From contig OY969100.1 in NCBI GenBank assembly GCA_963697895.1, positions 1,760,001 to 1,824,000 on the forward strand: 64,000 nt of DNA. Reading direction: 5' to 3'. Shown piece by piece: positions 11,721 to 29,340 of this stretch; position 1 is the first letter of the stretch; each line of letters opens with the position of its first letter. A program made the position numbers and the translations under genes. A model generated the notes under the pieces. The model searched no databases, was not told the DNA's origin, and was given only the letters and a program-made list of their open reading frames with translations. The DNA is from an uncultured Methanomicrobiales archaeon. Lineage in GTDB: Archaea > Halobacteriota > Methanomicrobia > Methanomicrobiales > Methanospirillaceae.

Positions 11721-11734
11721 TTCACAATTGTGAA
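11721..11734. promoter_or_regulatory. Palindromic operator TTCACAATTGTGAA between iscS and the PAPS-reductase::desulfurase gene
   Basis: Perfect palindrome (16 bp with flanking A/T), recurring in other island promoter regions. Confidence 0.85.
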
Positions 11735-11936
11735 TGCGTATTCAAATGTTGTGAGTGAGTGCATTTAATTGTTCTGTTTGAAGTTCCCAAAAATAATTCA
11801 GAGAAGACAATAACCTGGATTTTCATAACAGCTCCCGGAATTCTTACCTCAAGTCCGAGCTTGACGGTAATACCATGGGGTAGGTGCTCCCTCCTGGACA
11901 CTGATATTATCAAGCTGCCATGTGCACCTTATAGTG

Positions 11937-14564
11937 ATGCGGGATCCCCCGGTGAAAAAGACGCTCTATTGGTGCGACCACTGCGATGTCCCCCTGATCG
12001 GTAAGCATTGCGGATGCGGAAATACGGGAAGGGCGATCTCCCTGCTACAGCCCTATGATGTCCGTCCCGCCCTATCCCATGACACGGAGTTGATCTATTC
12101 GCTTATCAACGAGCGGTTTGGAGATTTACGCCTTCCACAAGTCATTCTTTTGAACAAAACAGGAGGAATTGACCGGAATGACCTGGTGATAACCCATGGA
12201 GAACGATTGGGGTGGCTCTCATTCGATCCGGTAAGCCGGAAGTTCCGGTTTGACCTTGCGCCAGAGGGACTCCCGTTCATCCTTTCGGAAATGAAAAGAG
12301 GAATAATCGATCTCGAGGCCGCGATTCCTTCTTCAGAAGGGAAGCCCTCAGGGAGGATTGGAGGCAAGCGGTTCAGGGTTACAACCCAGGAGCAGGATGG
12401 AACTGTTATCGTGCGGTATCGTAAACAGTTTGGTACTGGAGTCCTGAAGAATGGATATTTGAGGGTAAAGGAGCTGGGAACGGTACCGGAACGGGAATCC
12501 CCCGACCCGGGCTGGGATGTTGTGGTGGCCAGGAATCAGTACCACTTGAAAAACCTGGAGAGAAACGCGATACGGGCTATCCGCCAGCATATGCATGATC
12601 GCCCGAGGGTGAATGTATCATTTTCCGGGGGAAAGGACAGTACCGCGGTCCTTGCACTCGCTCGCAAGGCCGGTGTCCACGAAGCTTTCTTCATCGATAC
12701 CGGGATCGAATTCCCAGAGACCTTGGCATTTATTGAAAAACAGGGGGTAAAGATCGTCAGGAGAGGTGGGGATTTCTGGAGTGCCGTTCAGAAGGCCGGA
12801 CCACCGGCAAAAGATCGCAGATGGTGCTGCAAACTCCTGAAATTGAATCCACTGAAACTACATCTGGCTGAAACGGGCCCCTGTGTCACCATCCAGGGAA
12901 ACCGGTGGTATGAGTCGTGGAACAGGGCAGACCTAGACATCACCAGCCAGAACCCGGCCAATCCACTCCAGCTGAATATCTCGCCAATCCGAAATTGGCG
13001 GGCACTTGAAGTGTACCTCTACCTCTGGTGGCAGAGGATCCCCTACAATCCCCTATACGACCAGGGGCTTGAGCGGATCGGTTGTTACCTCTGCCCCGCC
13101 ATGCTCGAGAGCGAATCTGAACAACTCGAGAAGATACACCCTGAATTTGCGTCGCGATGGAATGATTTTCTCAGAGGTTGGGAAGATTCCCGGGGGCTTC
13201 CCCGTGAGTATCACAAATGGGGCCTTTGGCGTTGGAAGGAACTCCCTCCCAAGATGAAGGGACTCTGCGAAACCCATGGGATCGTGCTTCAGGAAAACCC
13301 TGTTGCTATCCGCCGGACAACTCCCTCCCCTTATGCGGTCTCCGGGAATGTCGCAGTGCCGAAAAAGGAAGATGATAGTATGATCTATGAAGATGTCAGG
13401 AAGGATTTCTCGCTGGTCGCCGACATTATCTACCTGGACAGCGCCGCGACCAGCCTCTCACCGGAACCGGTGCTGGAGGCAGTCCTTGAATTCGAAAGGA
13501 ACTATCGGGCGAACGTCGGTCGGGGGGTGCACCGATTGGCGCAGATAGCCACCCAGCGGTACTGGCACGCCCATGAGAAAGTTGCCCGTTTCATCGGCGG
13601 GGAGAATGGCACCACGGTGTTTACCAAGAATACCACGGAAGCCATCAACATGGTCGCCCGAGGCCTGGGGTTGCGGAAGGGGGACAGGGTTGTCACCACC
13701 ATCCTCGAGCACCATTCAAACCTCGTCCCCTGGATGCATCTCAGGCAAGAAGGAGTAGACCTCGAGATCGTGGGGATCAACAGAGACTATAGTTTGAATC
13801 TATCAGCACTCGAGGCTGCGGTCACCGATTCAACAAGGCTGGTCACTCTATCCCATGTGTCCAATGCCCTTGGGGTGATCTGTCCCGTCGAAGAGGTGGC
13901 CCGGATCTGCCGGGACCAGGGGGCACTCCTCCTCATTGATGGATCCCAGTCCGTCCCACACCTACCCCTAGATATACATCGTATCGGGGCTGATTTTCTC
14001 TGCTTCTCGGGGCACAAGATGCTCGGACCGACCGGAACAGGCGTGCTCTGGATGAAAGAGCCGGTAATTGCGCCAAGCGACCTGGGAGGAGGGATGATCG
14101 ATACCGTATCAGAGGGGGGATACACCCTCGCCGAAGGATACCAGCGGTATGAAGCCGGCACTCCGAACATCAGTGGTGGAATTGGCCTTGGTGCTGCTGT
14201 CGATTACCTGAAAAGGGTAGGTATGGACAAGATAAGGAGCTCTGAAGAACGTCTGACAACACGGCTTATCGAAGGGCTCCGTTCCATCGACGGGGTAACA
14301 GTCTATGCGCATGACGATCCTGCACGGCGAATCGGAGTCGTTTCATTCACCGTTTCAGGATTCCATCCCCACGAGGTGGCACAGGCACTCGATGAACAGG
14401 CCGATATCATGGTCCGGTCTGGGCATCACTGCTGCATGCCCCTCATGCAGCGACTAGGCCTGCCGGATGGCACAATCAGGGCAAGCCTTTACCTCTACTC
14501 TGCGAATCACGAGGTCGATACTCTCCTCGCGACGGGGAAGGACATTGCGAGAAGTCGTTTATAA
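11937..14564 (+). CDS. PAPS/APS-reductase-family PP-loop protein fused to a SufS-type cysteine desulfurase
   Basis: N-terminal WCDHC..CGC; FSGGKDS; WCCK and GCYLCP; from about 13380 YLDSAAT, FSGHKMLGP, RSGHHC. Confidence 0.88.
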   Translation: MRDPPVKKTLYWCDHCDVPLIGKHCGCGNTGRAISLLQPYDVRPALSHDTELIYSLINERFGDLRLPQVILLNKTGGIDRNDLVITHGERLGWLSFDPVSRKFRFDLAPEGLPFILSEMKRGIIDLEAAIPSSEGKPSGRIGGKRFRVTTQEQDGTVIVRYRKQFGTGVLKNGYLRVKELGTVPERESPDPGWDVVVARNQYHLKNLERNAIRAIRQHMHDRPRVNVSFSGGKDSTAVLALARKAGVHEAFFIDTGIEFPETLAFIEKQGVKIVRRGGDFWSAVQKAGPPAKDRRWCCKLLKLNPLKLHLAETGPCVTIQGNRWYESWNRADLDITSQNPANPLQLNISPIRNWRALEVYLYLWWQRIPYNPLYDQGLERIGCYLCPAMLESESEQLEKIHPEFASRWNDFLRGWEDSRGLPREYHKWGLWRWKELPPKMKGLCETHGIVLQENPVAIRRTTPSPYAVSGNVAVPKKEDDSMIYEDVRKDFSLVADIIYLDSAATSLSPEPVLEAVLEFERNYRANVGRGVHRLAQIATQRYWHAHEKVARFIGGENGTTVFTKNTTEAINMVARGLGLRKGDRVVTTILEHHSNLVPWMHLRQEGVDLEIVGINRDYSLNLSALEAAVTDSTRLVTLSHVSNALGVICPVEEVARICRDQGALLLIDGSQSVPHLPLDIHRIGADFLCFSGHKMLGPTGTGVLWMKEPVIAPSDLGGGMIDTVSEGGYTLAEGYQRYEAGTPNISGGIGLGAAVDYLKRVGMDKIRSSEERLTTRLIEGLRSIDGVTVYAHDDPARRIGVVSFTVSGFHPHEVAQALDEQADIMVRSGHHCCMPLMQRLGLPDGTIRASLYLYSANHEVDTLLATGKDIARSRL

Positions 14565-14629
14565 AACCCTGGCGTGAACCTTACAGGACCGCGATTTTCC
14601 GATCTAATATCCTGATAACTAGATCCTGT

Positions 14630-15613
14630 TCACACATCCCGGAAAGGCGTGAGATCGCACCCGGTACAGGGGAGGCACATCGTCTTTGCTGCACGGGGGT
14701 CAAGATTAAACTCAGCAAGAAGAGCCTTTTGCATCCGTGCCAGCCGGAGCAGGCGATCGGGCGAGGGTCTATTGACTTTCACCTCGCCAGCCCTGAGCGG
14801 GGAAGCGGAGATTGGTCGAAGGATAGGGATCACTCCCCGTTCGGCCAAAAGCCTCACGCCTTCCCTGACGCAGGCATCATCTTCCCCAAGCCCGATGATG
14901 AAATTGGAAAAGACTGCATTCTTCCCGAAAATCTCCACGGCATGCTCCAGGGAGGCAATGATGAACTCAAGGGAGAGGCCTGGGCAGACCCGTGCAAAGA
15001 TATCCCGGTCTGTGGTCTCAACATTTTACTTGATCTCGTCAGCCCCGGCAGCAGCAAGGATTTCTGAGGAAGTGGTTGTCGGGTATACCGAGACCCCGAT
15101 GGGGAGATCGAATTGTTCCCGGAGCACTCTCACAACCTCTGCCATTCTTAAAACCTCCTTCCCGGGCGTATCGGCAACCCCGCTTGTCAATGAAATTGCT
15201 TTAAGGGTCCCCCCGGCAGCAGCCTCTTCGACCTTTCTTAAGACGGTTGCTCTTCCCTTGATCTTCCCCTGCAGTCTTGGCACCGGGCAGAACTTGCAAT
15301 CATAGATGCACCGCTCGCTGATAGTAATGTACGCCTGATCGGGGCAGTGACAGAGTGATGGTTCAAGCGTTCCATGGGTGATCTCAGTACCGTTCAGGAC
15401 CGCTACTACCCGGTTTCCATCGGGCATAATGTTAAGTGAAGATGCCGGATTGATGGAGAGCCGGACACGGTGATCCCCGGACCGGAGAAAGAAGGAGGCC
15501 CCTCCCGCGCCGGGACCTGCTGTAGCAGTCGTCTTCAGGGACCCTGTGATAAGCGCCTCATCGATCCGTGCACTCCCGATGCTTAGCAGTAGGGCTTTTT
15601 CCTCAGGGGTCAT
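14630..15613 (-). CDS. Radical SAM protein (biotin-synthase-related) with an in-frame TAA at 15026-15028
   Basis: CIYDCKFC motif; frame continues ADEIK*NVETTDR to NFIIGLGE and C-terminal CLPCTGC; stop sits where Tyr would be expected. Confidence 0.8.
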
Positions 15614-15762
15614 GGTATGATATTCCTCTGGTTACAAAGATCCTCTGATCGAGGGTGATCGGTCTCCGGTATTGGAATGGAGAGTAGGCCCACGACGAGA
15701 GATGACTGTCTGTTCCTGATTTCGGCTGTTCAGGATGGGTATCCGGATGCTCGTCTGATGCA

Positions 15763-15804
15763 TTCACAATTGTGAATTACAATACAATGATTAACAATTG
15801 TGAA
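15763..15804. promoter_or_regulatory. Two operator copies (perfect 15763-15776; TTAACAATTGTGAA 15791-15804) next to a TATATAA box
   Basis: Divergent radical SAM/nadA intergenic region; copies 28 bp apart. Confidence 0.85.
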
Positions 15805-15907
15805 TATATAACTCTGATGATCAAGTCCGGCCGCCAGCCATGAAAAACGTCCCTGGTTATGGCTGGACCAGTATAAAGGGAAGACCAGAGCAGACCTGAG
15901 GAGAAGA

Positions 15908-16819
15908 ATGACTGATCGCAACACGCTCCGGAGGGAGATCCTTTCCCTCAAAGAGGAATGGAACGTTATCATCCTTGCACATAACTACCAGAATGCCGAG
16001 GTTCAGGATATCGCCGATCTGGTCGGGGATTCGCTCGAACTTGCACGGGCTGCAGGGTCAATGGAAGGTGCGGTTATCGTGTTCTGCGGTGTTGACTTCA
16101 TGGCAGAGACGGCTTCGCTCCTTTCACCGGACAAGACGGTTCTTCTGCCAGCAATTGATGCCTGCTGCCCCATGGCAGAGATGGTGACCTCTGGCGAACT
16201 TGCCGTCTTGAAGGACAGGTATGCGGATGCCGCTGTGGTTTCTTACGTGAATACTACGGCCGAAGTGAAAGCGGTGAGTGACATTTGCTGCACCTCAGCC
16301 AATGCGGTTAAAGTGGTAGAATCTCTCCCTGAATCACGGGTTATCTTTGTTCCCGATCGGAACCTTGCCAGTTATGTTGCCCGACATACATCCAAAATAA
16401 TCCTTCCCTGGGATGGCTACTGTATTGTTCATGATCGCATCACTGTTGAGGATGTCCTCAGGGAGAAAGCCCAGCATCCTGATGCTGAATTGCTTGTCCA
16501 TCCCGAATGCCGTCCCGAAGTGGTTGACTGTGCTGACCACGTATTCTCCACTTCGGGAATCATCAGGCACACCTGCGAAAGCCAAAAAGAGGAGTTCATA
16601 ATCGGAACTGAAGTCGGGATCCTCCACCGGATGAAGAAACTCTGCCCTGAAAAACGAATTTTCCCACTCTCTCCAAAAGCAATATGTGCGAATATGAAGA
16701 AGATATCCCTCGAAAAGGTGCTTACAGCCATGGAAAGGATGGAACCACGGGTTACGGTTCCACCTGACATTGCAGCACCAGCCCGTCGGGCAATCGAACG
16801 GATGCTTGCGATCTCCTGA
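15908..16819 (+). CDS. nadA: Quinolinate synthase A
   Basis: ILAHNYQ, FCGVDFMAE, CPMA, CIVH, HPEC, CANMKK. Confidence 0.96.
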   Translation: MTDRNTLRREILSLKEEWNVIILAHNYQNAEVQDIADLVGDSLELARAAGSMEGAVIVFCGVDFMAETASLLSPDKTVLLPAIDACCPMAEMVTSGELAVLKDRYADAAVVSYVNTTAEVKAVSDICCTSANAVKVVESLPESRVIFVPDRNLASYVARHTSKIILPWDGYCIVHDRITVEDVLREKAQHPDAELLVHPECRPEVVDCADHVFSTSGIIRHTCESQKEEFIIGTEVGILHRMKKLCPEKRIFPLSPKAICANMKKISLEKVLTAMERMEPRVTVPPDIAAPARRAIERMLAIS

Positions 16820-16971
16820 GCCTAACCTTGGAACGGATATAGAGTCCTCTGACCTGCGGTCCCCCATGGCTGGGAAGAAGAATGATTCTGAAGGACCGTT
16901 AGCCGGTCGGAGGAGACTGAGACGATGAACGGTGTACGCTATAAGAATACCCGTTCATCCCTCTCAACCTC

Positions 16972-18009
16972 TCAATCGCTGCCGGTAACACTCTCGAAGA
17001 ATACAGGCCAGAAGGGGTCTTGCTCTGGCATGGCAATCTTTTCTCTTTGGCCATTCCTTCTCGTAATCTGTCTGTATCCGGGATCACCGGTGACCTTCCC
17101 GATAACTGATGCGGGGATGCCGGCACTTCTTAACGCCTCGATGATGCCGTCAGTAGATTCAGGTCCCGCGGTGATCAATAGTGATCCTTCTGCAATCGCC
17201 GCAACAGGATCTATCCCGAAATGATCGCAGACCATCTTTACTTCTTCGGGATAAATGAACCGGGCTTCATCAACTTCAATTCCCACTCCGCTAGCCTCGG
17301 CGATCTCGAACAGGCCGCCGATTACCCCGCCCTCGGTGGCATCGTGCATCGCCGTGACTCCCCCGGCAGCCATCGCGATAAGCGCATCATCAACCACGGT
17401 CATCTGATGGACAAGCTCTATGGCTTTGACTACGAGGGAGCCCGGATACTGATCACGGAGGTCATCTTCCCTGAGGACCGATAAGATACCGGCTGTCTCG
17501 ATGGCGGGTCCCTTGGTGAGAATCACTGTATCCCCGGGCCGTGCACCGGCCGGAGTGACATACTCACCTCGGCGTGAGATCGCAAATACCGTGATCCCCC
17601 CGATGGTCGGCGCTGCAAAGCCCGGGTAATGACCGGTGTGGCCCCCGACAATAGCAATCCCGAGATCACGTGCGGCACGGTCGATCGATTCCACTACGGT
17701 GATAAGATCCTCCCTGGAGAACTCTGGGGGCATCAGGAGGGAATAGGTCATATACTGTGGTTTCACTCCCATGACCGCGATATCGCTTGCGCCGATATGC
17801 ACGGTGTACCAACCGAACATCTCCAGGGGCTGGCCCGGAATTGCAAAGATGGGGTCTTCGGCAACGATCAAAACCTTTCCATCCCCGATATCAATGACCC
17901 CCGCATCAATGCCTGGCATCGGGGGAACGATGATATGTTCATCCTTCTTCCCGAGTTTCGGTAGAATGACCGATGAGAATGTGCTCCCGTCGATCTTCCC
18001 GATCTTCAT
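16972..18009 (-). CDS. AIR synthase (PurM/HypE/ThiL)-superfamily protein
   Basis: DAGV, SDIAVMG, IVGGHT, AMHDATEGG motifs. Confidence 0.85.
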   Translation of the reverse strand: MKIGKIDGSTFSSVILPKLGKKDEHIIVPPMPGIDAGVIDIGDGKVLIVAEDPIFAIPGQPLEMFGWYTVHIGASDIAVMGVKPQYMTYSLLMPPEFSREDLITVVESIDRAARDLGIAIVGGHTGHYPGFAAPTIGGITVFAISRRGEYVTPAGARPGDTVILTKGPAIETAGILSVLREDDLRDQYPGSLVVKAIELVHQMTVVDDALIAMAAGGVTAMHDATEGGVIGGLFEIAEASGVGIEVDEARFIYPEEVKMVCDHFGIDPVAAIAEGSLLITAGPESTDGIIEALRSAGIPASVIGKVTGDPGYRQITRRNGQREKIAMPEQDPFWPVFFESVTGSD

Positions 18010-18614
18010 TCAGACCGCCTCCGTTGATAGGCTCGTGCAATCCCTATCATCTCATCAACCACGGAGACAGGGTCTCTCCCCACAAGTACTGTAACCGGTT
18101 CCTTTCCTATGGCACCCGTCTCGTAGAAGAGATTAGGCACCCGGCCACCTGCAGCGCGGATCGCCTCTCCCACTTTCCATGGCATGGACGCCCCCTCTTC
18201 CTCCTTCATGTCATCTGGTTCATTTCTCCGGTCGATCACGCTGAAGATCCACCCTTTCTCCAGAGAATAATCCTTCAGCCAGGCAGCGAGTGCGGGGTCA
18301 TTTGCAAAATTGATCCCTGCCCTGATTGATGGATCCCTCTTGCGTAGTTCAAGCAAGAGCCGCGCCATGTGGCTCGATGCACCGAATCTTGGCATTCCCG
18401 CCGCATGCGGCATTCCGTTCACAACCGTGATCCTCCCGTCTATCGCAAGAACATCATCAGGACTCCGGGCACGTTCCTTCGCATACACGAGATTGGTTCT
18501 CACTTCAGGGATCAACGATGTAAATTCCCTGCAGGATTCAAGCATGTAGAGCGCAATGCGCATTTTTTCAAACATCGCAACCGCTTCTTCAGTATCGTCC
18601 TCTCCCTCCATCAT
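18006..18614 (-). CDS. ThiN-like (archaeal thiamine-phosphate synthase family) domain protein
   Basis: LIPEVRTNLVYA, GRIT, FGASSHMAR, DRRNEP, GKEP. Confidence 0.82.
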   Translation of the reverse strand: MMEGEDDTEEAVAMFEKMRIALYMLESCREFTSLIPEVRTNLVYAKERARSPDDVLAIDGRITVVNGMPHAAGMPRFGASSHMARLLLELRKRDPSIRAGINFANDPALAAWLKDYSLEKGWIFSVIDRRNEPDDMKEEEGASMPWKVGEAIRAAGGRVPNLFYETGAIGKEPVTVLVGRDPVSVVDEMIGIARAYQRRRSE

Positions 18615-18744
18615 GGAAACTCCCTTCGAATTCTGTCTTATGTAATAGATCGGTCTGGTTCCGGGTTATTATGCAGGGGGATCTCAGAGCACGGGATGGA
18701 CGATTGAATCCATTCCTGCCTGGTCGCCCATGTATCCAGAACAT

Positions 18745-18758
18745 TTCACAATTGTGAA
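18745..18758. promoter_or_regulatory. Operator TTCACAATTGTGAA just downstream of a minus-strand TATA-like element (AAAGTATATC) for the ThiN-like operon
   Basis: Perfect palindrome. Confidence 0.85.
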
Positions 18759-18873
18759 TTGATATACTTTGCCACCGTACACTTCTCATACACTCGACAG
18801 AGCCCTGATTAGAAATACGTTCCTTGCTTTGGGGATCTTGCACTGCAGTACGAGGCTTGCAGGGTAGTGTTCA

Positions 18874-19650
18874 CTACGGAGTCGACTGCTCCTTCTTTTT
18901 GGAGACTTCGATCCGTTCCGGATGCGTGTACACGTTCATCTTATCGCCACGGGCAAATCCGACGATGCTGAGCCCGTTTTTATCGGCGATCTCTATTGCG
19001 AGAGTAGTTGTCGCACCCCGTGAGATAATGATGGGAATATTGGCAATCAGGCACTTCCGCGCCATCTCCGAGGAGATCCGCCCGGACGCGATGATGAATG
19101 TGTTCGATAGGTCAATTCCGTTTCTCAATGCATACCCAATGACCCTGTCCAAGGCATTGTGTCTCCCGATATCCTCAGATCCGCTGATGATTTTTTGGGC
19201 GCCAACAAGCGCAACGACGTGGATTCCTCCTGTTATTTTATAAAGTTCGGAGTTGAGGGTGTTTTTCATCATGTCCGTAATGAATGCAGTGCTGATAGAG
19301 AAAACAGAATGAATTTTGGGGAGTTTTTCTGGATCGATATACGAGGCACTTCCCCCGCATCCCGAAAGGATCGTTTTTTTCGGGCCGAGGACTTTGAACA
19401 GGTTTGTGGTGATCACACTGATCCGGTTCTTATCCAATTTTATTGATTCAATCTCGTCAGCCTTCCTGATTACCTGTTCGGTGAAGAGGAAGCCGGTGAC
19501 GAAGTCTTCAATACCATCAGGGCTCATCATTGCTGTCATCATGTGCCGCCCGTTCACAAAGAGAGCGTATGGTATCTCTTCGACGACTTCATGGAGGATC
19601 CGTTCAGATATTCCCCCAATGATCCGGATGCAGGGTACCTTACGATACAC
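18874..19650 (-). CDS. fdhD: Formate dehydrogenase accessory sulfurtransferase FdhD
   Basis: GFLFTE, SGCGG, TGGIH, EDIGRHNALDRVIG, SGRISSEM. Confidence 0.92.
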   Translation of the reverse strand: MYRKVPCIRIIGGISERILHEVVEEIPYALFVNGRHMMTAMMSPDGIEDFVTGFLFTEQVIRKADEIESIKLDKNRISVITTNLFKVLGPKKTILSGCGGSASYIDPEKLPKIHSVFSISTAFITDMMKNTLNSELYKITGGIHVVALVGAQKIISGSEDIGRHNALDRVIGYALRNGIDLSNTFIIASGRISSEMARKCLIANIPIIISRGATTTLAIEIADKNGLSIVGFARGDKMNVYTHPERIEVSKKKEQSTP

Positions 19651-19713
19651 CTGTCACACCCTCCTCTGTCCGTTGGCCAAGATTAGAGATGATTCCGGGT
19701 ATCGCATGTTCCA

Positions 19714-20523
19714 TCACTTGATTAACACCTCATCCATGCTCCCGCTCCGGTAACCTTCAAGATCCAGTGTAATATACGAAATCCCTAACTTTCTGAATTC
19801 TTTCGCTATCTCGTCTCTCATACCAGCGATCCTGGGTATATCCCTATTTTTTGCTTCAATTCTCGCAATTCCGGAATGCATCCTCACCCGAACCTGGAGA
19901 AACCCTTTGGAGTGAAGATAGTCTTCCGCAACTTCAATCATCCGGAGGCACTTTTCAGTTATCTCTTCTCCGTAGGGAATTCGAGAGGAGAGGCAAGCGG
20001 CGGAAGGTTTGTTCCAGAAATCGTACCCGCATTCCCGGGCAATATTCCTGATATCTTCTTTGTTGATCCTCGCATCGATAAAGGGGTGCACAATCCCCTC
20101 TTCAGTACTGGCGATGATCCCCGGGCGGTGTTCATTGATGTCAGAGAGATTTATCCCATCGGCAACACAGTAAAGGCCAAGTTCGTGAGCCCTCCTTTTC
20201 AGGATTTGTGCATCTGTCTTTTTACAGTGGTAGCAGCGATCGGGAGCATTTCTTCTGATTGTATCATTTATGGCATTCTCCCGGATGATTTCAAACGAGA
20301 GGCCGAGACTATAACCGATACGCTCCGCTTCGATTACTGCCGATCTCGGGACAAGGGGGCTGTCAAGAAAGACACAGTGGGCTCTCTCATCCATCACCAC
20401 TTTTGCCACTGCTGCCAGAAGAGCACTGTCTACCCCGCCCGAATAGGCAATGAGCATGGATTTCCTTATGCCAATCTGTTGCTTCAGGGCTTCATACTTG
20501 CAGCCGTTTCCCTCTTTGTCCAT
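19714..20523 (-). CDS. larE: ATP-dependent sulfur transferase LarE
   Basis: AYSGGVDS PP-loop, RCYHCK, RPG, ACLSSRIPYG, GYRSGSM. Confidence 0.92.
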   Translation of the reverse strand: MDKEGNGCKYEALKQQIGIRKSMLIAYSGGVDSALLAAVAKVVMDERAHCVFLDSPLVPRSAVIEAERIGYSLGLSFEIIRENAINDTIRRNAPDRCYHCKKTDAQILKRRAHELGLYCVADGINLSDINEHRPGIIASTEEGIVHPFIDARINKEDIRNIARECGYDFWNKPSAACLSSRIPYGEEITEKCLRMIEVAEDYLHSKGFLQVRVRMHSGIARIEAKNRDIPRIAGMRDEIAKEFRKLGISYITLDLEGYRSGSMDEVLIK

Positions 20524-20576
20524 GATGGAACGAGTATCTCCGATGGAAGGAATTCAGTGGGATGAGCCAAAAAAAA

Positions 20577-20906
20577 TCAGGAGTCGCACTCCGATGGTTC
20601 ATACCCGCACTGGTCCCCTTCCTCCCTTAGTTGCTTGCAGATATCACAGATCCGGTCAACGAGGTTTTCCACTTTTCCGTCCTTGAGGTCCTGTGCAAGG
20701 CGTTCAATCGATCGTTTTACTTCATCCTCAAACTCGATTCGGTACCCGCGTTTACCGGATATATACTGGGATACCGCAGAGGGGGCAATCTCGAGCATTT
20801 TTGAGGCCTCGATCTGGGATACTCCGCACCTTACCAGTTCGACGGCAATTGCCGCCCTGATTGCGGGCAAAACATCCCATACAATCTTTTGACACGGTGC
20901 CTGCAT
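20577..20906 (-). CDS. Cys-rich XRE-type HTH transcriptional regulator (COG2522-like)
   Basis: PC...LPAIRAAIAVEL..GVSQIEASKML..SAVSQYISGKRG HTH; C-terminal ICDIC. Confidence 0.85.
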   Translation of the reverse strand: MQAPCQKIVWDVLPAIRAAIAVELVRCGVSQIEASKMLEIAPSAVSQYISGKRGYRIEFEDEVKRSIERLAQDLKDGKVENLVDRICDICKQLREEGDQCGYEPSECDS

Positions 20907-20947
20907 ACTCTCACTCTCTGAGTGTAATCATCCATAGATGTTTGGCT

Positions 20948-20961
20948 TTCACAATTGTGAA
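20948..20961. promoter_or_regulatory. Operator TTCACAATTGTGAA about 40 bp upstream of the HTH gene
   Basis: Perfect palindrome; position suggests autoregulation. Confidence 0.85.
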
Positions 20962-21060
20962 TCAACTTAGGAACCCAAAATAGTTTGCACGCTCTTTTTT
21001 TTTCATTTTGGAACGATCACTCCCCTTTAAGAGATCCATTGGAGGATCATCTACCGCTTA

Positions 21061-21116
21061 CGAAATCTATAAATAATCACAATAGTTATCAAATAAGGTA
21101 AGTTCACAATTGTGAA
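21061..21116 (+). promoter_or_regulatory. tRNA-Cys/pscS promoter: BRE/TATA (CGAAATCTATAAATA), degenerate site 21076-21089, perfect operator 21103-21116
   Basis: TATA box followed by the palindrome, which ends 6 nt before the tRNA. Confidence 0.8.
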
Positions 21117-21122
21117 TTCAAT

Positions 21123-21194
21123 GCCCGGGTGGCAGAGTGGTGATGCGTCAGACTGCAGATCTGATCAATATGAGTTCAATTCTCATCCCGGGCT
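21123..21194 (+). tRNA. tRNA-Cys (GCA)
   Basis: GCCCGGG/CCCGGGC acceptor, U73, TCAGA-CTGCAGA-TCTGA anticodon arm with G37, ATGAG-TTCAATT-CTCAT T-arm. Confidence 0.93.
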
Positions 21195-21210
21195 TTCAGG
21201 TGACACAACA

Positions 21211-22575
21211 ATGGATAACAGGATAGATAACGTCTTTCGTGCCCTCTTTACCCTTGAGGACCTGCGGGAAATCCACCGCAAGGCACTCCCCACGGGTATG
21301 GATGCTAAAGAGGAGGACCAGTACCGGGAAACCCTGGCCCGCCTGAAAAGGATCATCTCTGATATCGAGCGGGGGAGACCCGCAAAGGAAATCACGAAAA
21401 TCGCCGGAACCATTGATATCCGTACCCGTGAGGAGAATTACATCAATATTCAGCCCATCCAGGCTGCAGGACGGCTCACACCGGAGGCACGGAAGGCGGT
21501 TATTGCATATGGAGACGGGTATTCGACCTGTGACGCCTGCCGAAAACCCTTCCGCCTCGACAAGATCTCAAGGCCGGGGATAGCCGAGTTCCATGCAGAC
21601 CTTGCAAAGTTCGTGAATATGGACCAGGCCCGGGTCGTGCCTGGGGCGAGGCGCGGGTTCCAGGCAGTCACGGGGACATTAGTGGAGAAAGGCGACAGCG
21701 TAATCGTATCCGCACTTGCTCACTATACCGAGTTCCTCGCAGTGGAAAATGCCGGAGGGATCGTTAAGGAAGTGCCCCTCAACGAGAAAAATATCGTAAC
21801 GGCAGATGCGATGGCACAAAAAATCGAGGATGTCAAACGGGAGACGGGAGAACTCCCGGTACTCGTCATGATCGACCACATCGATTACCAGTTCGCAAAT
21901 GAGCACGAGATCGCCGGAATCGGAAAAGTCGCGCACCAGTACGACATCCCGTTCCTCTATAATGGTGCCTACACTGTCGGGGTCATGCCGGTCGACGGTA
22001 AGAAAATAGGAGCTGACTTTGTCGTCGGCTCCGGACACAAGAGTATGGCATCGGTCGCACCGTCCGGGGTGCTTGCGATGACTGATGAATGGGCACCTTC
22101 CGCGCTCCGCACCACCGCGATGGTCGGTGACCTTACCAAGAGGAAGTTTGGCATCAAGGAGGTCGAGATGCTCGGATGCACGCTGATGGGCGGGACCCTC
22201 ATTTCCATGATGGCCTCGTTCCCGATCGTCAAAGCACGGACGCAGATTTGGGACAATGAGGTAAAAAGGTCCAACTACTTCATCGACCGTCTGTTGAAAA
22301 TTTCCGGCAGCACAGTGCTCTCTGAGTATCCACGCAAGCATACCCTCACGAAGGTGGACACAACAGGAAGCTTCGATACTGTGGCAAAAACTCACAAACG
22401 GCGCGGGTTCTACTTCAGCGACGAATTGTCATCCCGCGGGATCGCCGGAGAGTTTGCCGGGGCGACGAGGACCTGGAAGCTGAACACCTACGGGCTCAGT
22501 GATAAGAAAATCCGGTACCTTGCGGACGTTATCACCGAAATTGCGGAAAAATACGAATTACCCGTCTGTAAATGA
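21211..22575 (+). CDS. pscS: Sep-tRNA:Cys-tRNA synthase with an N-terminal SepCysE-like extension
   Basis: PIQAAGRLT, GDGYSTCDAC, GSGHKS, EMLGCT; AGGTGA RBS before ATG 21211; about 65 extra N-terminal residues. Confidence 0.93.
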   Translation: MDNRIDNVFRALFTLEDLREIHRKALPTGMDAKEEDQYRETLARLKRIISDIERGRPAKEITKIAGTIDIRTREENYINIQPIQAAGRLTPEARKAVIAYGDGYSTCDACRKPFRLDKISRPGIAEFHADLAKFVNMDQARVVPGARRGFQAVTGTLVEKGDSVIVSALAHYTEFLAVENAGGIVKEVPLNEKNIVTADAMAQKIEDVKRETGELPVLVMIDHIDYQFANEHEIAGIGKVAHQYDIPFLYNGAYTVGVMPVDGKKIGADFVVGSGHKSMASVAPSGVLAMTDEWAPSALRTTAMVGDLTKRKFGIKEVEMLGCTLMGGTLISMMASFPIVKARTQIWDNEVKRSNYFIDRLLKISGSTVLSEYPRKHTLTKVDTTGSFDTVAKTHKRRGFYFSDELSSRGIAGEFAGATRTWKLNTYGLSDKKIRYLADVITEIAEKYELPVCK

Positions 22576-22584
22576 GGACCAACA

Positions 22585-23883
22585 ATGTCAGACAAGAAAT
22601 TCCGTTTAGGAACGACCGCCCTCCATGCAGGGCAGGTACCCGACCCAACCACCGGGTCACGGACTGTACCGATCTACCAGACGACCTCGTACATGTTCAA
22701 GAACACGGAGCATGCTGCAAACCTATTCGGGTTAAAAGAGCTCGGGAATATCTACACCCGGCTTATGAACCCGACAACGGATGTCTTCGAAAAGCGCATT
22801 GCTGCAATTGAAGGAGGGACCGGCGCCATCGCAACAGCATCGGGAGCTGCGGCAATAACCTACGCGATCCTGAACATCACTCGTCCCGGTGACGAGATCG
22901 TCTCAGCAGACAACCTGTATGGCGGTACGTACGAGTTCTTCCACTATACCCTCCCGAAGTTCGGGCGGTACGTCATCTTCGTAAACTCCTCAAAACCGGA
23001 AGAATTCAGGAAAGCGATCACCGGGAAGACAAAGGCGATCTATGCTGAGACCGTCGGCAACCCGAAACTGGATGTCCCTGACTTTGAGAAGATTGCGCAG
23101 ATAGCCCATGATGCCGGCGTTCCCTTTATCGTTGACAACACGACCGGAGTCGGTCTTGTCCGCCCGATAGATCACGGTGCTGATGTCGTCGTCCATTCGG
23201 CGACCAAGTACATCGGCGGTCATGGGAACTCTCTCGGGGGAGTCGTCGTCGACTCTGGCAAATTCGCGTGGAATAATGGTAAGTTCCCCGAGTTCACCGA
23301 TCCGGACCCGAGTTATCACGGCCTGAAATACTGGGACACGTTCGGAAATTTTCCCGGCCTCGGGAACGTGGCATTTGTCTTCAAGATCCGGGTCTCACTC
23401 ATGAGGGATACCGGTGCCGTACTCAGCCCGTTCAATGCCTGGCTTTTCCTCCTCGGCCTTGAGACCCTGCACCTGCGGGTACCCCGCCACTCTGAGAATG
23501 CCCTTGCCGTCGCGGAATTCCTTAACAACCACCCGAAGGTGGCCTGGGTGAACTATCCGGGACTTCCCGATAACCCAAACCACGAGCTCACAAAAAAATA
23601 CCTTGTAGGCGGGTATGGCCCACTTGTCGGGGTTGGTATAAAGGGCGGTGAAAAGGCAAGCAGAAAGTTCATAGACAGCCTCAAGCTATTCAGTAACCTC
23701 GCTAATATCGGAGACTCGAAGAGCCTGGTCATCCACCCGGCGAGCACGACTCACCAGCAACTCACGGTCGAGGAACAGGCAAAGACCGGTGTCACGCCAG
23801 ATGCAGTTCGGCTCGCGATCGGTACCGAAGATATCGAAGATATTCTCTCAGACCTGGATCAGGCATTGGAAGGGGCTTGTTGA
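22585..23883 (+). CDS. metY: O-acetylhomoserine aminocarboxypropyltransferase (sulfhydrylase)
   Basis: [37 protein letters not shown]. Confidence 0.93.
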
Positions 23884-25359
23884 TGATCAAAGGTTCGGTG
23901 GGTATTGTGGAGACGAAGTATTACCAACATCAGTACATACTCGAACTAGAAAGCGGGGAAACCCTGCCTTTTCTCACAATCGCCTACGAGACCTATGGAA
24001 AACTGAACCGGGACAAGAGTAACGGGATTCTGCTCTGTCATGCCCTTTCAGGGGATGCCCATGTCGCCGGATTTCATGAAGGCGATGAAAAGGCCGGGTG
24101 GTGGGATAGTGTCGTCGGCCCCGGGAAAGCAATTGATACAGATCGTTACTTTGTCGTATGTTCCAATGTGATCGGCGGGTGCAAGGGCTCCACTGGTCCT
24201 TCGTCCCCTCATCCTGAAACCGGGAAGCCCTATGGGTTATCCTTTCCGGTCATCACCATCGGTGACATGGTGACAGTCCAGAAGATGCTCCTCGATCACC
24301 TGGGGATAAAGCGGCTTTTCGCCGTTGCGGGAGGGTCGATGGGAGGAATGCAGGCACTGCAATGGACGGTCTCCTACCCCGACATGGTAAAAAAAGCGAT
24401 CATCATCGCAGCAACCGGGTATTCAACACCCCAGCAGATCGCGTTTAATGAAGTGGGGAGGAAGGCGATCATCTCCGATCCCGACTGGAACAACGGGGAT
24501 TATTACGGAAGATCGCTGCCCATCCATGGGCTTTCGCTGGCACGGATGGTCGGTCATATCACCTACCTGTCCGACGAGTCGATGCACGCAAAGTTCGGAA
24601 GGGCGCTGCAGGGCAAGGAGCAGATCGGGTTTGACCTCTCCACCGACTTTCAGGTGGAGAGTTACCTCCATCACCAGGGCGATACATTTACCCGGCGGTT
24701 TGATGCGAACTCATACCTGTACATCACCAAGGCGATCGACTACTTTGATCTGACACAAGACGATTCACTCACAAACGGCCTCTCGGGGGCAAAGGCAAAC
24801 TTCCTCGTCATCTCGGTCTCCTCCGACTGGCTCTACCCTCCGTACCAGTCGCAGGAGATCGTATCAGCGCTGGCGGCAAACGAGCGGGATGTTCATTACT
24901 GTGAGATACGCTCCAATTATGGCCACGATGCCTTTCTGCTGGAATCCGGGCAGCTCGAACTACCTTATCGGGAAATTCCTCTCCTCAACCGTGGTGGAGG
25001 ATATAATGACCCGGAATATCCAGATTATCGAGGAAGGAACGACGATCGCAGTCGCGGCGCGTTGCATGATAACGGTGGGGGTAAACCACCTCCCTGTTCT
25101 TACCAGTAATGGGAAACTCGTAGGGATTGTTACATCATGGGACATTGCAAAGGCAGTGGCCTCCAATTACCTGTGGCTGGATGAGATCATGTCAAAAAAT
25201 GTAATCACGAGCACGGTGGGTGAGTCAATCGAGTCGGCGGCAAAGAAGATGGAAGAACATCAGATCTCGGCGCTTCCGGTAATTGATGAACAGGAACATG
25301 TTATCGGGCTTGTCACGAGCGAAGCAATCAGTATGCTCATCGGTGGGTGGAATACGTGA
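23883..25359 (+). CDS. metX: Homoserine O-acetyltransferase with C-terminal CBS pair (frameshift near 24957)
   Basis: CHALSGD, GGSMGG, YGHDAFL; removing one base joins it to the CBS-domain ORF ending at 25359. Confidence 0.88.
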
Positions 25360-25871
25360 GAATTCTTTCCATTCATGCCGATTCAATGTGGTACCGTGCA
25401 ACACAGAAGACGCAAATGGCCGAGTACATCCAGCAGAGGGAAGATCTGATGAAGGAATGTGTCGTGCTCTTCTGCTGTGTGGAAAAGCTGGACGAGCGGA
25501 GCCCGGATTACGTGATCGCAAGCGCGATAAGGAACATCCTCGAACGGCTGAACAAATTGAAGGTGCACCAGGTGATGATCTATCCGTACGCACATCTCAC
25601 GAGCACACTCGGCTCTCCGGAGTGTGCGCTCCGGATCCTCATAGGTATTGAAGAAGGGCTTCGTGCATCGTCGGTGGAGGTCAAACGGGCGCCGTTTGGC
25701 TGGTATAAGGAGTTCGAGATCCGGGGAAAGGGACACCCGCTTGCGGATCTCTCCATGACAATCTGCCCGTATGAAGGGGTCGAATGTGATTTCCAGTGCC
25801 CGTACTGCAAAAATCCGATCAAGGAAGGCGATCTCCAGAGAACCCGACCTGTGGCGCACATCATGAATTAG
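25347..25871 (+). CDS. Stand-alone archaeal ThrRS editing domain (Ser-tRNA deacylase-like) with a Cys-rich tail
   Basis: [30 protein letters not shown]; tail CPY...CDFQCPYC. Confidence 0.85.
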   Translation: MEYVRILSIHADSMWYRATQKTQMAEYIQQREDLMKECVVLFCCVEKLDERSPDYVIASAIRNILERLNKLKVHQVMIYPYAHLTSTLGSPECALRILIGIEEGLRASSVEVKRAPFGWYKEFEIRGKGHPLADLSMTICPYEGVECDFQCPYCKNPIKEGDLQRTRPVAHIMN

Positions 25872-25897
25872 ACGGTACCCGGGGATGGAATATTCGA

Positions 25898-27010
25898 ATG
25901 ACAAGGCAATGGCTCGTCCGATATTCGGAACTGTTCCTGAAATCAGACCCGGTTCGTCGTCGGTGGGAACAGGTCCTCATTGCGAATATCCTGAAGGTAT
26001 CGCCGGAGATCCAGGTAAGAAGCGAGCGTGGACGCATTTGGCTTAGCGGAGAGGTGATTCCGGAGTGGCTGGAAAAAATCTTCGGCGTTATCTCGTTCTC
26101 CGAGGTCGAGCAGGTACCACTCGGACGGCTCGATTCGGTCCTTCCGGATTACTGCCGTTGTAAAGGGATGGAAAAGGTCAAAACGTTTGCCATCCGAATG
26201 AAGCGGGTTGGGAATCATACCTTCACTTCGCATGAAAAAGCGATCGAATACGGCAACCTGATTCGAAGAACGTTTCCACACCTGAAAGTGAACCTTGCGA
26301 CTCCGGATAAGGAGATATTCATTGAGATCCGGGGATACGAATGTTACCTGTATGATTCGATGATCAAGGGGCCGGGGGGTCTTCCCCTGGGCGTTGAAGG
26401 AACACTGGTTGCGCTCCTGTCCGGTGGAATCGACTCGCCGGTTGCCACATGGATGATGATGAAGCGGGGGTGCAGGATCATTCCGTTGTTCATCGCCCTC
26501 GACAGTGTCCTCGATGAGACTAACCGCGAGCGTGCAGAGAGCGTCGTCGAAGCACTACGGGCGTATCAGCCGGATATCGAGCTCTGCGTGATCACCGATT
26601 CGTATCTTTCCCGTGCAAAACAGGAACTCACACGGGTCGGTCTGGAAAAATATACCTGTATCTTCTGTAAACGAAGGATGTACCGGGTCGCAGAAAAGTT
26701 CGCGCGAAATGCGGGGGCGAAAGGGTTCGTTACGGGTGAATCCCTCGGACAGGTCGCGTCCCAGACACTGGATAATCTCATGGTCCTGAACGAGGCAGCG
26801 ACCATGCCGGTATACCGCCCCCTCATCGGGTTTGACAAGGAAGAAACAATCCGCATCGCACGGGAGATTGGCACCTTCGCCGCTTCCATCACACACGCAA
26901 CCGGATGTACAGCGGTTCCGAAGGGACCCTCAACGAAGGCAGATCTCGACACAATCAGACAGATTGAAAAGGAACTACTTTCCTTCAGTGATACTATTCC
27001 CTTATCCTGA
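25898..27010 (+). CDS. thiI: tRNA 4-thiouridine synthase ThiI (methanogen Fe-S type)
   Basis: VRYSELFLKS, THUMP region, LLSGGIDSPVA, CIFCKR, GESLGQVASQT; no rhodanese domain. Confidence 0.93.
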   Translation: MTRQWLVRYSELFLKSDPVRRRWEQVLIANILKVSPEIQVRSERGRIWLSGEVIPEWLEKIFGVISFSEVEQVPLGRLDSVLPDYCRCKGMEKVKTFAIRMKRVGNHTFTSHEKAIEYGNLIRRTFPHLKVNLATPDKEIFIEIRGYECYLYDSMIKGPGGLPLGVEGTLVALLSGGIDSPVATWMMMKRGCRIIPLFIALDSVLDETNRERAESVVEALRAYQPDIELCVITDSYLSRAKQELTRVGLEKYTCIFCKRRMYRVAEKFARNAGAKGFVTGESLGQVASQTLDNLMVLNEAATMPVYRPLIGFDKEETIRIAREIGTFAASITHATGCTAVPKGPSTKADLDTIRQIEKELLSFSDTIPLS

Positions 27011-27069
27011 TATTAGGGTTCGGGGTACATGTCGGGTCATTCGGTTACTGCCCGAAAAGATATTCCTGA

Positions 27070-27354
27070 TCATGGCTTTTTTCTCGCCTTCGCCCGGATC
27101 ATATCGGCTTCTTCCGCGGATTCGACACGGAGGATATAGGTCCCGTAACAGGGTTTTGTATAGGGGAGGATGACCACCGGACCTTCCAGGCCGATTGAGA
27201 TGGGGGGCACGCCGATCAAACATTTCTCAAAGATTTTAAAGCCGGGATCCACGTAGTATCTCTCCTCACAACGATCCTCGATATATTTCCGCGATTCCTT
27301 AAATGAGACTCCGAAAGCGAGAACTTCGTATCCTAGGTCTTCGACGCAGCCCAT
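27070..27354 (-). CDS. DUF1894-family protein
   Basis: MGCVEDLGYE..., IGVPPI, YTKPCYGT; paired with DUF1890. Confidence 0.72.
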   Translation of the reverse strand: MGCVEDLGYEVLAFGVSFKESRKYIEDRCEERYYVDPGFKIFEKCLIGVPPISIGLEGPVVILPYTKPCYGTYILRVESAEEADMIRAKARKKP

Positions 27355-27806
27355 CCAAACACCTCGTCCATTTTCCTCCGCAGCTGCCCGGGATTATGCA
27401 CAGCTTTCTCCACAATCTTCTCACAGGGTACCTCGAGTTGTTCCCCCAAAGCCTCGGCCTCCCTTCCGAAGATCACTGCAATAAGCCGCCCTCCGGTCAG
27501 AAACCGAACGGTAGTTGCATACGAAATCCCGGCATCACTGTGGGCGAAGACAATGCAGAGCTTTGGTTGACGTTTTTTTGTCGAAAGTTCCTCAATGCAC
27601 CGGTCCAGTTCCACGAATTTTTTAATATACATCTTTGCCGGATCAGATACCCGCAACAACGTTAATACCGCCGCATTACCAGCAACCACCAGGGGCTGCC
27701 CGCTCTGGTTGAACCGATACCCACAGTACAGTGCAAGCGCCTGTTGAACCGGTACCTCAGGGCAACCAAGAATTAACAATGGTTCCGTATTTTCAGTATC
27801 ATTCAT
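27333..27806 (-). CDS. DUF1890-family protein
   Basis: LILGCPEVPVQ, HSDAG, AVHNP motifs. Confidence 0.75.
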   Translation of the reverse strand: MNDTENTEPLLILGCPEVPVQQALALYCGYRFNQSGQPLVVAGNAAVLTLLRVSDPAKMYIKKFVELDRCIEELSTKKRQPKLCIVFAHSDAGISYATTVRFLTGGRLIAVIFGREAEALGEQLEVPCEKIVEKAVHNPGQLRRKMDEVFGWAASKT

Positions 27807-27894
27807 AGAGATCCCACAGGGACAAAGCCGGATTTGCATTGGAGCGTCGCTGATTTGTAGTCAGCCAACGAGTTGTTATTCAGCTTCTGTTCGG

Positions 27895-27921
27895 TTCACA
27901 ATTGTGATTCACAATTGTGAA
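27895..27921. promoter_or_regulatory. Tandem overlapping operators TTCACAATTGTGAT and TTCACAATTGTGAA upstream of DUF1890
   Basis: Copies at 27895-27908 and 27908-27921. Confidence 0.85.
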
Positions 27922-28088
27922 ATAATTCTCGGTCTATATTCTATAAGAACATATTCTTTGAGGAAAATCGATAAGGAATTTCATATAGGTAATGCGGCCC
28001 AGATTAGAAATATTTTATAAATACATGGATGATAGGATACACGTTATTTTCAGCGATTGATATAACCATTGAGTGAATTGATCTAAAG

Positions 28089-28102
28089 ATAACAATTGTG
28101 AA
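28089..28102. promoter_or_regulatory. Operator variant ATAACAATTGTGAA upstream of the desulfurase-cysM operon
   Basis: 12/14 match to the palindrome. Confidence 0.7.
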
Positions 28103-28173
28103 CATTTTTATCCCATGCGATTCTCATGAGTATTGCACATTCCGTGGATACCTTTTCTCCAGGGTGATTGTTG

Positions 28174-29340
28174 ATGTATGATCTACAAAAGTTACGCCAG
28201 GAATTTCCGATACTTTCAAAATGTGTCTACCTAGACAGTGCCTCGACCAGCCAGACACCCCGGTGCTCTGTCGATGCGATGTGTGAATATTTCTTCGAAT
28301 ATGCGGCGAACCATGGAAGAGGTGCTCATCACCTCGCCCGGAAGACAACCGAAAGGTACGAAGAGACCAGAACCAGGCTCGGAAATTTTCTGAAGGTCAC
28401 TCCGGATCACATTATATTCACAAAGAATACCACAGATGCGGTAAATACGGTTGCAAACGGGCTTACGTGGAAACGGGGCGATGAAATTATCACCACGTGG
28501 CTGGAACATCATTCAAATCTTCTTCCCTGGATGATGCTTAAGCGAAAGGGTGTCCGACTTACGATCATCCCACATGAGAACGGATATCTCGATCCCCATG
28601 CAATCCAGGAGGCAATCTCATCAAAGACGAGATTGATTGCGGTCACCCATATGCCCAATATCCTCGGAACGGTCCAACCGGTCGAGGCAATCGGTCGAAT
28701 CGCCCATGATGCCGGGGTGCCTGTGGTCGTTGACGGAGCGCAATCCGTCGGGCATTTTCCTGTTGATGTTACTTATATCGATTACCTGGCAATTCCCGGT
28801 CACAAAGGACTTCTCGGGCCGCAGGGTACTGGGGCGCTTTATACGAAAGATCCAGAGTCTTTGAATTGTTCGATCTACGGGGGAGGGATGGTGGTATCCG
28901 TCTCGCATAATGAAGTAAAATTACTCCCTCCCCCAGCCAAATTTGAACCAGGGACGCCAAATATCCCGGGAGTTATCGGGCTCGGTCCGGCAATTAATCT
29001 CGTCAGTTCAATGGGCGTCAGGAATATTCACTCTTATGAGAAGAAACTCGGCTCTCAGATGTATGCGGGATTGGTAAGAATTCCCGGCGTGAGTATATAC
29101 AGCCCGCACGGAACCGGCGTAGTTTCATTCAATGTCGCCGGGCATAATCCGAATGAATTTTCCCGGAAGCTTGATGATTACCGGAAGATCTGTGTGAGGA
29201 GCGGTATGCATTGCGCAGAACCACTGGCGAGCAGTTATCATTGTGAAGGGACGATCCGGGCCTCGGTCGGTTGTTATACCACGTCTGATGAAGTTGATGA
29301 CCTGATCGAGAGTGTCCGGCATCTGAGCGGGAACGATTAG
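28174..29340 (+). CDS. SufS-like (class II) cysteine desulfurase, island copy
   Basis: YLDSAST, EHHSN, PGHKGLLGP, RSGMHCA. Confidence 0.92.
   Translation: MYDLQKLRQEFPILSKCVYLDSASTSQTPRCSVDAMCEYFFEYAANHGRGAHHLARKTTERYEETRTRLGNFLKVTPDHIIFTKNTTDAVNTVANGLTWKRGDEIITTWLEHHSNLLPWMMLKRKGVRLTIIPHENGYLDPHAIQEAISSKTRLIAVTHMPNILGTVQPVEAIGRIAHDAGVPVVVDGAQSVGHFPVDVTYIDYLAIPGHKGLLGPQGTGALYTKDPESLNCSIYGGGMVVSVSHNEVKLLPPPAKFEPGTPNIPGVIGLGPAINLVSSMGVRNIHSYEKKLGSQMYAGLVRIPGVSIYSPHGTGVVSFNVAGHNPNEFSRKLDDYRKICVRSGMHCAEPLASSYHCEGTIRASVGCYTTSDEVDDLIESVRHLSGND

Follow-up and report, generated by a model that had tools for sequence, protein, structure and literature searches.

A probable palindromic operator and a candidate helix-turn-helix regulator of a sulfur and iron-sulfur gene island in a Methanomicrobiales archaeon

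IscR, an autoregulated bacterial repressor of the Rrf2 family, carries a cysteine-ligated iron-sulfur (Fe-S) cluster that reports Fe-S status and controls iscSU. SurR, a redox- and sulfur-linked regulator of the Thermococcales with a CxxC motif, binds the palindromic site GTTn3AAC, controls hydrogenase and S0-reduction genes, and represses or activates by site position; TrmBL1 of the same order likewise does either. No CymR/CysB-type regulon, the bacterial counterpart for cysteine and sulfur assimilation, is known to control a tRNA-Cys gene. Methanogens need much iron and sulfur. Here we report on a 64,000-nucleotide (nt) stretch of the genome of an uncultured Methanomicrobiales archaeon (contig OY969100.1, positions 1,760,001 to 1,824,000; hereafter the window), in which a 14-base palindrome, TTCACAATTGTGAA, recurs throughout a 22 kb gene island. 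We propose that the palindrome is the operator of a transcription factor controlling a compact regulon for sulfur mobilisation, Fe-S cluster assembly, tRNA-dependent cysteine synthesis and sulfur-cofactor synthesis. Taken as a whole, the explanation in which this operator is bound by a 109-amino-acid (aa) helix-turn-helix (HTH) protein that represses transcription and holds a metal or an Fe-S cluster through its cysteines seems to us probable. The outcome is a concrete and testable candidate regulator-operator pair from comparative genomics.

Scanning the window recovered six perfect copies of TTCACAATTGTGAA, at positions 11721, 15763, 18745, 20948, 21103 and 27908, and none in any of 100 dinucleotide-preserving shuffles. 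Near-copies were found at 15791 and 27895 (one mismatch each) and at 28089 (two mismatches). These are the six perfect and three near-perfect copies of the original prediction, which had seen the motif nowhere else in the window; the remaining matches there have three mismatches (18418 and 51682), apart from a degenerate copy with four at 21076. All nine perfect or near-perfect copies are intergenic and none lies inside a long open frame. Each of the five promoter-bearing intergenic regions of the island holds at least one site and the intergenic regions between convergent genes hold none, in agreement with the earlier statement that the copies precede every apparent transcription unit. In a scan of the whole genome (2,091,725 bases, single contig), all six perfect copies fell inside this island, so that the motif is restricted to a single stretch of about 16 kb. 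Outside the island, the genome holds one match with at most one mismatch (genome position 1898783) and five with two mismatches. Because all six sit within open frames of 125 to 528 aa, they look like chance coding hits.

The palindrome has perfect two-fold symmetry, with half-sites about one helical turn apart, and thus fits a dimer. Its extended form is ATTCACAATTGTGAAT, with A preferred at -1 and T at +15 (62% each); conservation is limited to 14-16 bp of the operator and the flanks are not conserved. Pairs of sites 27-28 bp apart had been pointed out before, and both are present (28 bp for 15763/15791 and 27 bp for 21076/21103); a third pair is spaced by 13 bp (27895/27908) and pairs in relatives by 13-32 bp, so pair spacing is not fixed. 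The individual sites are as follows.

11721 to 11734: perfect operator between the divergent iscS (minus strand) and PAPS-reductase::SufS fusion gene (plus strand), 99 nt from the iscS start
15763 to 15776: perfect operator, promoter-proximal member of the pair between the radical-SAM gene (minus strand) and nadA (plus strand)
15791 to 15804: operator with one mismatch, TTAACAATTGTGAA, abutting the TATA-like GTTATATA in the radical-SAM direction
18745 to 18758: perfect operator, 130 nt upstream of the ThiN-like/AIR-synthase-like operon (minus strand), an arrangement shared with locus L001
20948 to 20961: perfect operator and putative autoregulatory site, 41 nt upstream of the HTH regulator gene
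21076 to 21089: degenerate operator copy (four mismatches) that directly adjoins the TATA-like CTATAAATAA in the promoter of tRNA-Cys and SepCysS
21103 to 21116: perfect operator, ending 6 nt before the 5' end of tRNA-Cys
27895 to 27921: two overlapping operators, at 27895 (one mismatch) and 27908 (perfect), upstream of the DUF1890-DUF1894 genes (minus strand)
28089 to 28102: operator with two mismatches, 65 nt upstream of sufS-cysM (plus strand), with a TTTTTATC run 2 nt downstream

Having located the motif, we asked how far it extends among related genomes. The exact 14-mer was found in 14 of 40 same-order relatives, and a reversed control sequence in 0 of 41 genomes. Outside the order, 16 of the 201 genomes of a phylum sample hold the exact motif; half of these (8/16) belong to a second family with a G+C content of about 40-48%, in which the motif flanks HTH, iscS-iscU-nadA, cysM, sufS-fdhD, thiF and SepCysS-metY. 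The target set is thus conserved across Methanomicrobiales and a second, lower-G+C methanogen group. For 24 same-order loci around exact copies, open reading frames were compared with the island proteins. Overall, the motif is conserved upstream of orthologous genes in 25 other genomes. The counts below give genes with a site (at most one mismatch) within 300 nt upstream, out of the orthologues present in the site-centred loci of these 25 genomes; the loci were chosen for holding sites, and the counts therefore describe genes recurring beside sites and not the fraction of all orthologues that are regulated.

HTH: 18 with site of 18 present
SepCysS: 12 of 13
IscS: 11 of 11
CysM: 6 of 7
PAPS-reductase or SufS: 5 of 11
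Radical SAM: 5 of 7
NadA: 3 of 9
ThiF: 3 of 13
LarE: 3 of 11

As expected, the count is 0 for IscU, MetY, FdhD and other genes that lie inside operons. Among the further genes beside sites in relatives are those for TauE/SafE permeases, DUF6803, a MarR-like protein, RibD_C and YbjQ.

The only DNA-binding protein encoded in the island is the 109-aa HTH protein (P0001, positions 20577-20906), and the position of its gene, its co-occurrence with the motif at order and phylum level, and the covariation of protein and operator make it most likely the operator's binder. In most genomes the site ends 41-48 nt before the start codon of the HTH gene, so that a two-fold symmetric operator lies upstream of the gene's own frame, as in the functional class of autoregulated repressors. 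At the order level, 24 of 41 genomes have an orthologue (E <=1e-20), and those 24 hold 104 sites with at most one mismatch. The 17 genomes lacking an orthologue hold 9 such sites; the reversed control gives 5 over all 41. In the phylum sample, an orthologue (E <=1e-18) is present in 95 of 201 genomes, including all 16 exact-motif genomes, and the motif occurs in none of the 106 genomes without one. The association of motif and candidate regulator is thus consistent at every depth sampled.

Further support comes from covariation. We assembled 39 HTH genes, including 20 further HTH loci from distant families. The exact 8-mer ACAATTGT is found within 130 nt upstream of 23 of them, and a match to TT[AC]ACAATTGT[GT]AA with at most two mismatches within the same distance of 30. 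Distant orthologues in which the segment at the HTH turn is altered have an altered operator (TTAAC...GTTAA): proteins reading APSAVSQY just after the turn go with TTCAC half-sites in 18 of 19 cases, and those reading T(P/Q)xA(V/I)SQY with TAAC half-sites in 11 of 11. For example, an equivalent sulfur island of a distant lineage, with an orthologue of only 38% identity (L073, G048:C1:1517000-1536900), carries seven TTAACAATTGTTAA-form sites within 17 kb around the HTH gene, two exact and five with one mismatch, which precede SepCysS-metY-metX-ThrRS-ED, tRNA-Cys-larE-thiI, radical SAM and thiF-moaD. This pairing of APS with TTCAC and of T-x-x with TTAAC lends itself to a specificity swap. The original prediction held that one dimeric repressor, which it did not name, controls Fe-S assembly, Cys/Met synthesis, tRNA thiolation and cofactor sulfuration. 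Exclusivity within the genome, conservation in 25 genomes, co-occurrence with the HTH gene and covariation support a regulon with a single regulator, and the term repressor is plausible from the promoter geometry described below.

Directly before the HTH start codon lies a conserved GGTTGTGATA-like run (window 20907-20925; also in L001, L005, L017-L019 and L023), probably a Shine-Dalgarno-type element, and the TTTAAA(G) that immediately precedes it may also act as TATA box for iscS on the divergent side. Nearly all genomes of the order, whether the motif is present or absent, encode a paralogue of the regulator with about 40% identity. In the genome studied here (G000) the paralogue is encoded at G000:C1:1961696-1961956 (L037:3679-3987, minus strand), near nadC and aspartate dehydrogenase genes, and no sulfur link was seen in this neighbourhood (PLD-like, HEAT, nadC, aspartate dehydrogenase).

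The regulator family is large, with 963 representatives at E <=0.001, and 61 of 67 members match HTH_3 at E <=0.01. Public names of relatives, from Methanoregulaceae and other Methanomicrobiales, are limited to "transcriptional regulator" or "hypothetical protein". Residues P4, C5, P14, Y48, R53, C87 and C90 are nearly invariant across 67 aligned representatives. All 39 operator-linked orthologues have Cys5, Cys87 and Cys90, and 38 have Cys100, with Cys27 and Cys107 variable; the four conserved cysteines suggest a metal, Fe-S cluster or thiol-based sensor. The AlphaFold model is confident (pLDDT 89.5) and has five helices. NCBIfam holds no family for the protein, a sequence search of the PDB returned nothing below E 1.5, and Foldseek against the PDB gave no match at E <=0.001, the best being ClgR, HigA and XRE proteins at E 0.2 or worse. 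A wide VIA structure search reached Z 6.0 at best, covering the HTH only, and the C-terminal helical hairpin matched CsoR/CstR-type helices at Z 5.3-5.8, within the range of generic helices. Rrf2 gave no match to the protein itself and did not appear among the 25 Pfam families (of 60) found most often in its 67 relatives. Look-alikes in the ESM Atlas belong to unnamed HTH_3 "transcriptional regulator" clusters from bacteria (most commonly Chlorobiota), Methanobacteriota, Bathyarchaeota and Nitrososphaerota.

tRNA-Cys genes are the most frequent direct target, a point absent from the original prediction. ARAGORN called 37 tRNA genes in the island and 51 site-centred loci, 32 of them tRNA-Cys(GCA). 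In 24 of these 32, from 13 genomes, an operator with at most two mismatches ends 6-22 nt ahead of the mature 5' end, an arrangement seen at none of the five other tRNAs in these loci. The operator-tRNA-Cys pair often heads operons, mostly that of SepCysS and also those of thiF, radical SAM, cysM, larE and DUF1890. This points to a transcription factor that would govern a specific tRNA gene jointly with an enzyme acting on that tRNA. A second tRNA-Cys of G000, identical to the first at 45 of 72 positions, has no operator. Between operators 27895/27908 and DUF1890 (window about 27830-27895, minus strand), a stretch aligns to the intact operator-linked tRNA-Cys of L014; CTACAAA replaces the CTGCAGA anticodon loop and ARAGORN makes no call. 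Given this decayed loop, the tRNA-Cys behind 27895/27908 is a relic. Genome G020 has at least eight tRNA-Cys genes across its site-centred loci, and in one of them (L065:1160-2511) an operator-linked tRNA-Cys is followed by a phage-integrase-family gene, which suggests that this copy is an integration site.

We then considered the genes of the island, identified by Pfam and NCBIfam profile searches, with tRNAs from ARAGORN. Eight or nine transcription units are served by the five promoter-bearing intergenic regions.

8505 to 11621, minus strand: iscS-iscU-thiF-moaD (SAMP-like)-moaE operon
11922 to 14564, plus strand: PAPS-reductase-domain::SufS fusion, 880 aa
14630 to 15613, minus strand: radical-SAM gene with an in-frame TAA at 15026-15028
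15908 to 16819, plus strand: nadA (quinolinate synthase)
16972 to 18614, minus strand: ThiN-like and AIR-synthase-related genes
18874 to 20523, minus strand: larE and fdhD, downstream of the HTH gene
20577 to 20906, minus strand: candidate regulator, 109-aa HTH protein, first gene of the HTH-larE-fdhD operon
21123 to 21194, plus strand: tRNA-Cys (GCA), leader gene of the SepCysS operon
21211 to 27010, plus strand: SepCysS-metY-metX-CBS-ThrRS editing domain-thiI
27070 to 27839, minus strand: DUF1890 and DUF1894 genes
28168 to 30275, plus strand: sufS and a cysM-like PALP enzyme

The gene names given previously were all borne out by Pfam and NCBIfam, and one gene had been left out, a tandem-CBS-domain gene (24889-25359) between metX and the ThrRS-editing-domain gene that overlaps an extended metX open reading frame. 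PAPS-reductase and SufS are also fused in L013 (874 aa), and most relatives encode them separately (about 394 and 663 aa). The single in-frame TAA of the radical-SAM gene sits where four of four orthologues have Tyr (IK-Y-NVET), and its promoter keeps two operators; the codon stems either from a nonsense mutation of recent date, which would make this a pseudogene, or from a sequencing error. A genome search placed the SepRS gene at 1925856-1927316, outside the island and with no operator, and no protein of the genome scored above the family cut-off for CysRS. Since SepRS is present and no CysRS was found above that cut-off, Cys-tRNA formation seems to depend on the regulated SepCysS, the sole route found, and SepCysS expression is therefore expected to be modulated and not switched off.

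In the proposed mechanism, the 109-aa protein would bind as a dimer, with one HTH per TTCAC half-site, and regulate both its own gene and all remaining transcription units of the island, among them the tRNA-Cys at the head of the SepCysS operon. For most promoters, the operator is predicted to lie on or just below the start, or to abut the downstream side of the TATA box, and we favor repression for this reason: binding would block recruitment of RNA polymerase. Cys5 and the Cys87-x2-Cys90-x9-Cys100 array would probably hold a metal or Fe-S cluster that reports sulfur or Fe-S sufficiency in an IscR-like manner, the liganded form binding and repressing, and loss of the ligand leading to de-repression.

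The promoter geometry was read with a crude TATA rule (at least 6 of 8 matches to the TATA consensus TTTAWATA and at least 7 A/T). At iscS, a TATA-like octamer precedes the operator by 19-31 nt (mostly 25-27 nt) in 9 of 10 promoters, which would place the operator at about +1 to +18; in the window, such octamers lie 4 and 27 nt upstream of operator 11721, read in the iscS direction. At SepCysS/tRNA-Cys, a TATA-like element abuts the distal and often degenerate site, with the proximal site 25-30 nt below that element. In the window this order is CTATAAATAA followed by 21076-21089, and the two-site layout of 21076 and 21103 recurs in L001, L003, L006, L014 and L036. The radical-SAM promoter of the window is arranged similarly, with GTTATATA, then 15804-15791, then 15776-15763. 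The HTH gene has a weaker TTTATG-type element about 15 nt upstream of the operator. Where HTH and iscS diverge, one operator is flanked by two TATA-like elements that face each other, and this operator could serve both promoters. The original prediction had noted several sites on or just downstream of TATA elements; at iscS, SepCysS, radical SAM and HTH the operators are downstream of TATA-like elements, and at nadA and sufS the site is directly upstream of a TATA-like run.

Several points weigh against this explanation. The genomes compared are related, so the counts are not independent, and the loci were selected for sites. Two motif-bearing genomes, G002 (73% complete) and G017 (400 contigs), have no orthologue at E <=1e-20. 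The candidate regulator scores 21.3 bits against Pfam HTH_3 (PF01381), below the cut-off of 23 bits, and has no close solved structure, and its four cysteines could equally form a structural zinc site. Over all site-gene pairs the TATA rule does not discriminate, with a hit upstream in 45 of 88 and downstream in 42 of 88, and the argument for repression therefore rests on gene classes read singly. Finally, the sites of nadA, of the PAPS-reductase::SufS fusion and of sufS precede or touch a possible TATA box, a position that could mean activation or exclusion of transcription factor B (TFB).

This last point leads to the reading that survives best beside repression, in which the same factor and operator act in activation, or in which a dual regulator activates where the site lies upstream of the TFB recognition element and TATA box, as SurR and TrmBL1 can. 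The nadA site (15791, then TATATAAC) and the sufS site (28089, then TTTTTATC) are directly upstream of a TATA-like run, and full repression would be lethal if SepCysS is the only Cys-tRNA route. At iscS, SepCysS/tRNA-Cys, radical SAM and HTH, however, the operator follows the best TATA-like element and sits at the expected start or beyond it, and an operator 6-22 nt before a mature tRNA 5' end leaves no room for a promoter behind it. Overall we regard an activator or dual role as unlikely, though it may apply at some promoters.

Turning from the mode of action to the factor itself, the palindrome might be a true operator bound by a different factor encoded elsewhere, with the HTH gene merely another target. 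The two motif-bearing genomes with no orthologue would fit this, as would the distant paralogue found in nearly all genomes of the order. Genomes that lack the motif have the paralogue too, however, and a different factor is hard to reconcile with the strict co-occurrence in the phylum sample (16/16 and 0/106), with an HTH-turn segment and a half-site base that change together, or with the lack of any other DNA-binding gene in the island; we consider it quite improbable. A non-regulatory motif, whether a repeat spread with tRNA-Cys duplication, an RNA hairpin or terminator, or a restriction-modification site, was rejected as barely credible. In its favor, the motif stands just upstream of most tRNA-Cys genes of the loci examined, some copies may have spread with tRNA-Cys cassettes such as the decayed one behind 27895/27908, and the CAATTG core is a known restriction site. 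Against it, iscS, the HTH gene, ThiN and cysM have the motif in front of them without any tRNA being present, only its 14-16 bp are conserved, its RNA fold is weak (-5.2 to -5.7 kcal/mol, z -2.0 to -2.6), no terminator-like match overlaps any site, and a restriction site should also turn up outside a single island of a 2-Mb genome. A sigma-70-type match at 15763-15791 starts on operator 15763; that scan uses a bacterial consensus and is uninformative for an archaeon.

Beyond the HTH repressor model itself, a broader view can be offered tentatively, as a possibility we hold to be rather doubtful: the new family of small HTH proteins with four conserved cysteines could do in methanogens what IscR does in bacteria, as a repressor that senses Fe-S or sulfide and sets the level of the entire sulfur-trafficking network, transcription of dedicated tRNA-Cys genes included, and operator plus tRNA-Cys could be a portable regulated leader cassette that recruits operons into the regulon. 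Such a cassette would have been placed repeatedly before SepCysS, thiF, radical SAM, cysM, larE and DUF1890 operons.

With respect to previous work, clade VII SepCysS genes often adjoin tRNA-Cys, sulfur metabolism genes and a ThrRS-editing-domain gene according to the main text of Mukai et al. 2017 (PMC5424206), and all three are found here as well. A term search of that main text returned no word beginning with regulat, promoter or transcription, and the operator and regulator of this island are not described in it. Similarly, term searches found neither "regulon" nor IscR in the searched text of a 2021 survey of methanogen Fe/S pathways (PMC8351635), and no mention of this regulator in that of Payne 2021 (PMC8516115) or of the Methanosarcina acetivorans ISC paper (PMC7585200). 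The exact 14-mer was not found in a text search of the literature, and keyword searches gave no description of motif or regulator, all of these covering literature outside subscription-only sources. The 10-base core turned up in 21 papers, and none of the 20 listed, whose contexts were not read, concerned archaeal regulation.

Overall, an autoregulated HTH-operator regulon is a familiar design; what appears undescribed so far is the protein family with its operator, how far the sulfur network extends, and the control of tRNA-Cys genes. The regulon resembles the CymR/CysB-type systems in that one factor would coordinate cysteine and sulfur assimilation genes, although those are bacterial and use other protein families. 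With SurR it shares an archaeal setting, a link to sulfur, a CxxC motif and a palindromic site, but the protein here has a weak HTH_3 match, its operator is different and its targets belong to biosynthetic sulfur metabolism; the original prediction had likewise set the motif apart from the SurR site. IscR is the closest in logic, since the same logic is proposed here and iscS-iscU is a core target of the regulon. In contrast to IscR, there is no Rrf2 domain, the HTH fold is small and all-helical, the operator is unrelated, and an Fe-S cluster in the regulator is a possibility with which the four conserved cysteines are compatible. The regulon described here also reaches further, to SepCysS, tRNA-Cys, methionine synthesis, LarE, ThiI and MoaD/E.

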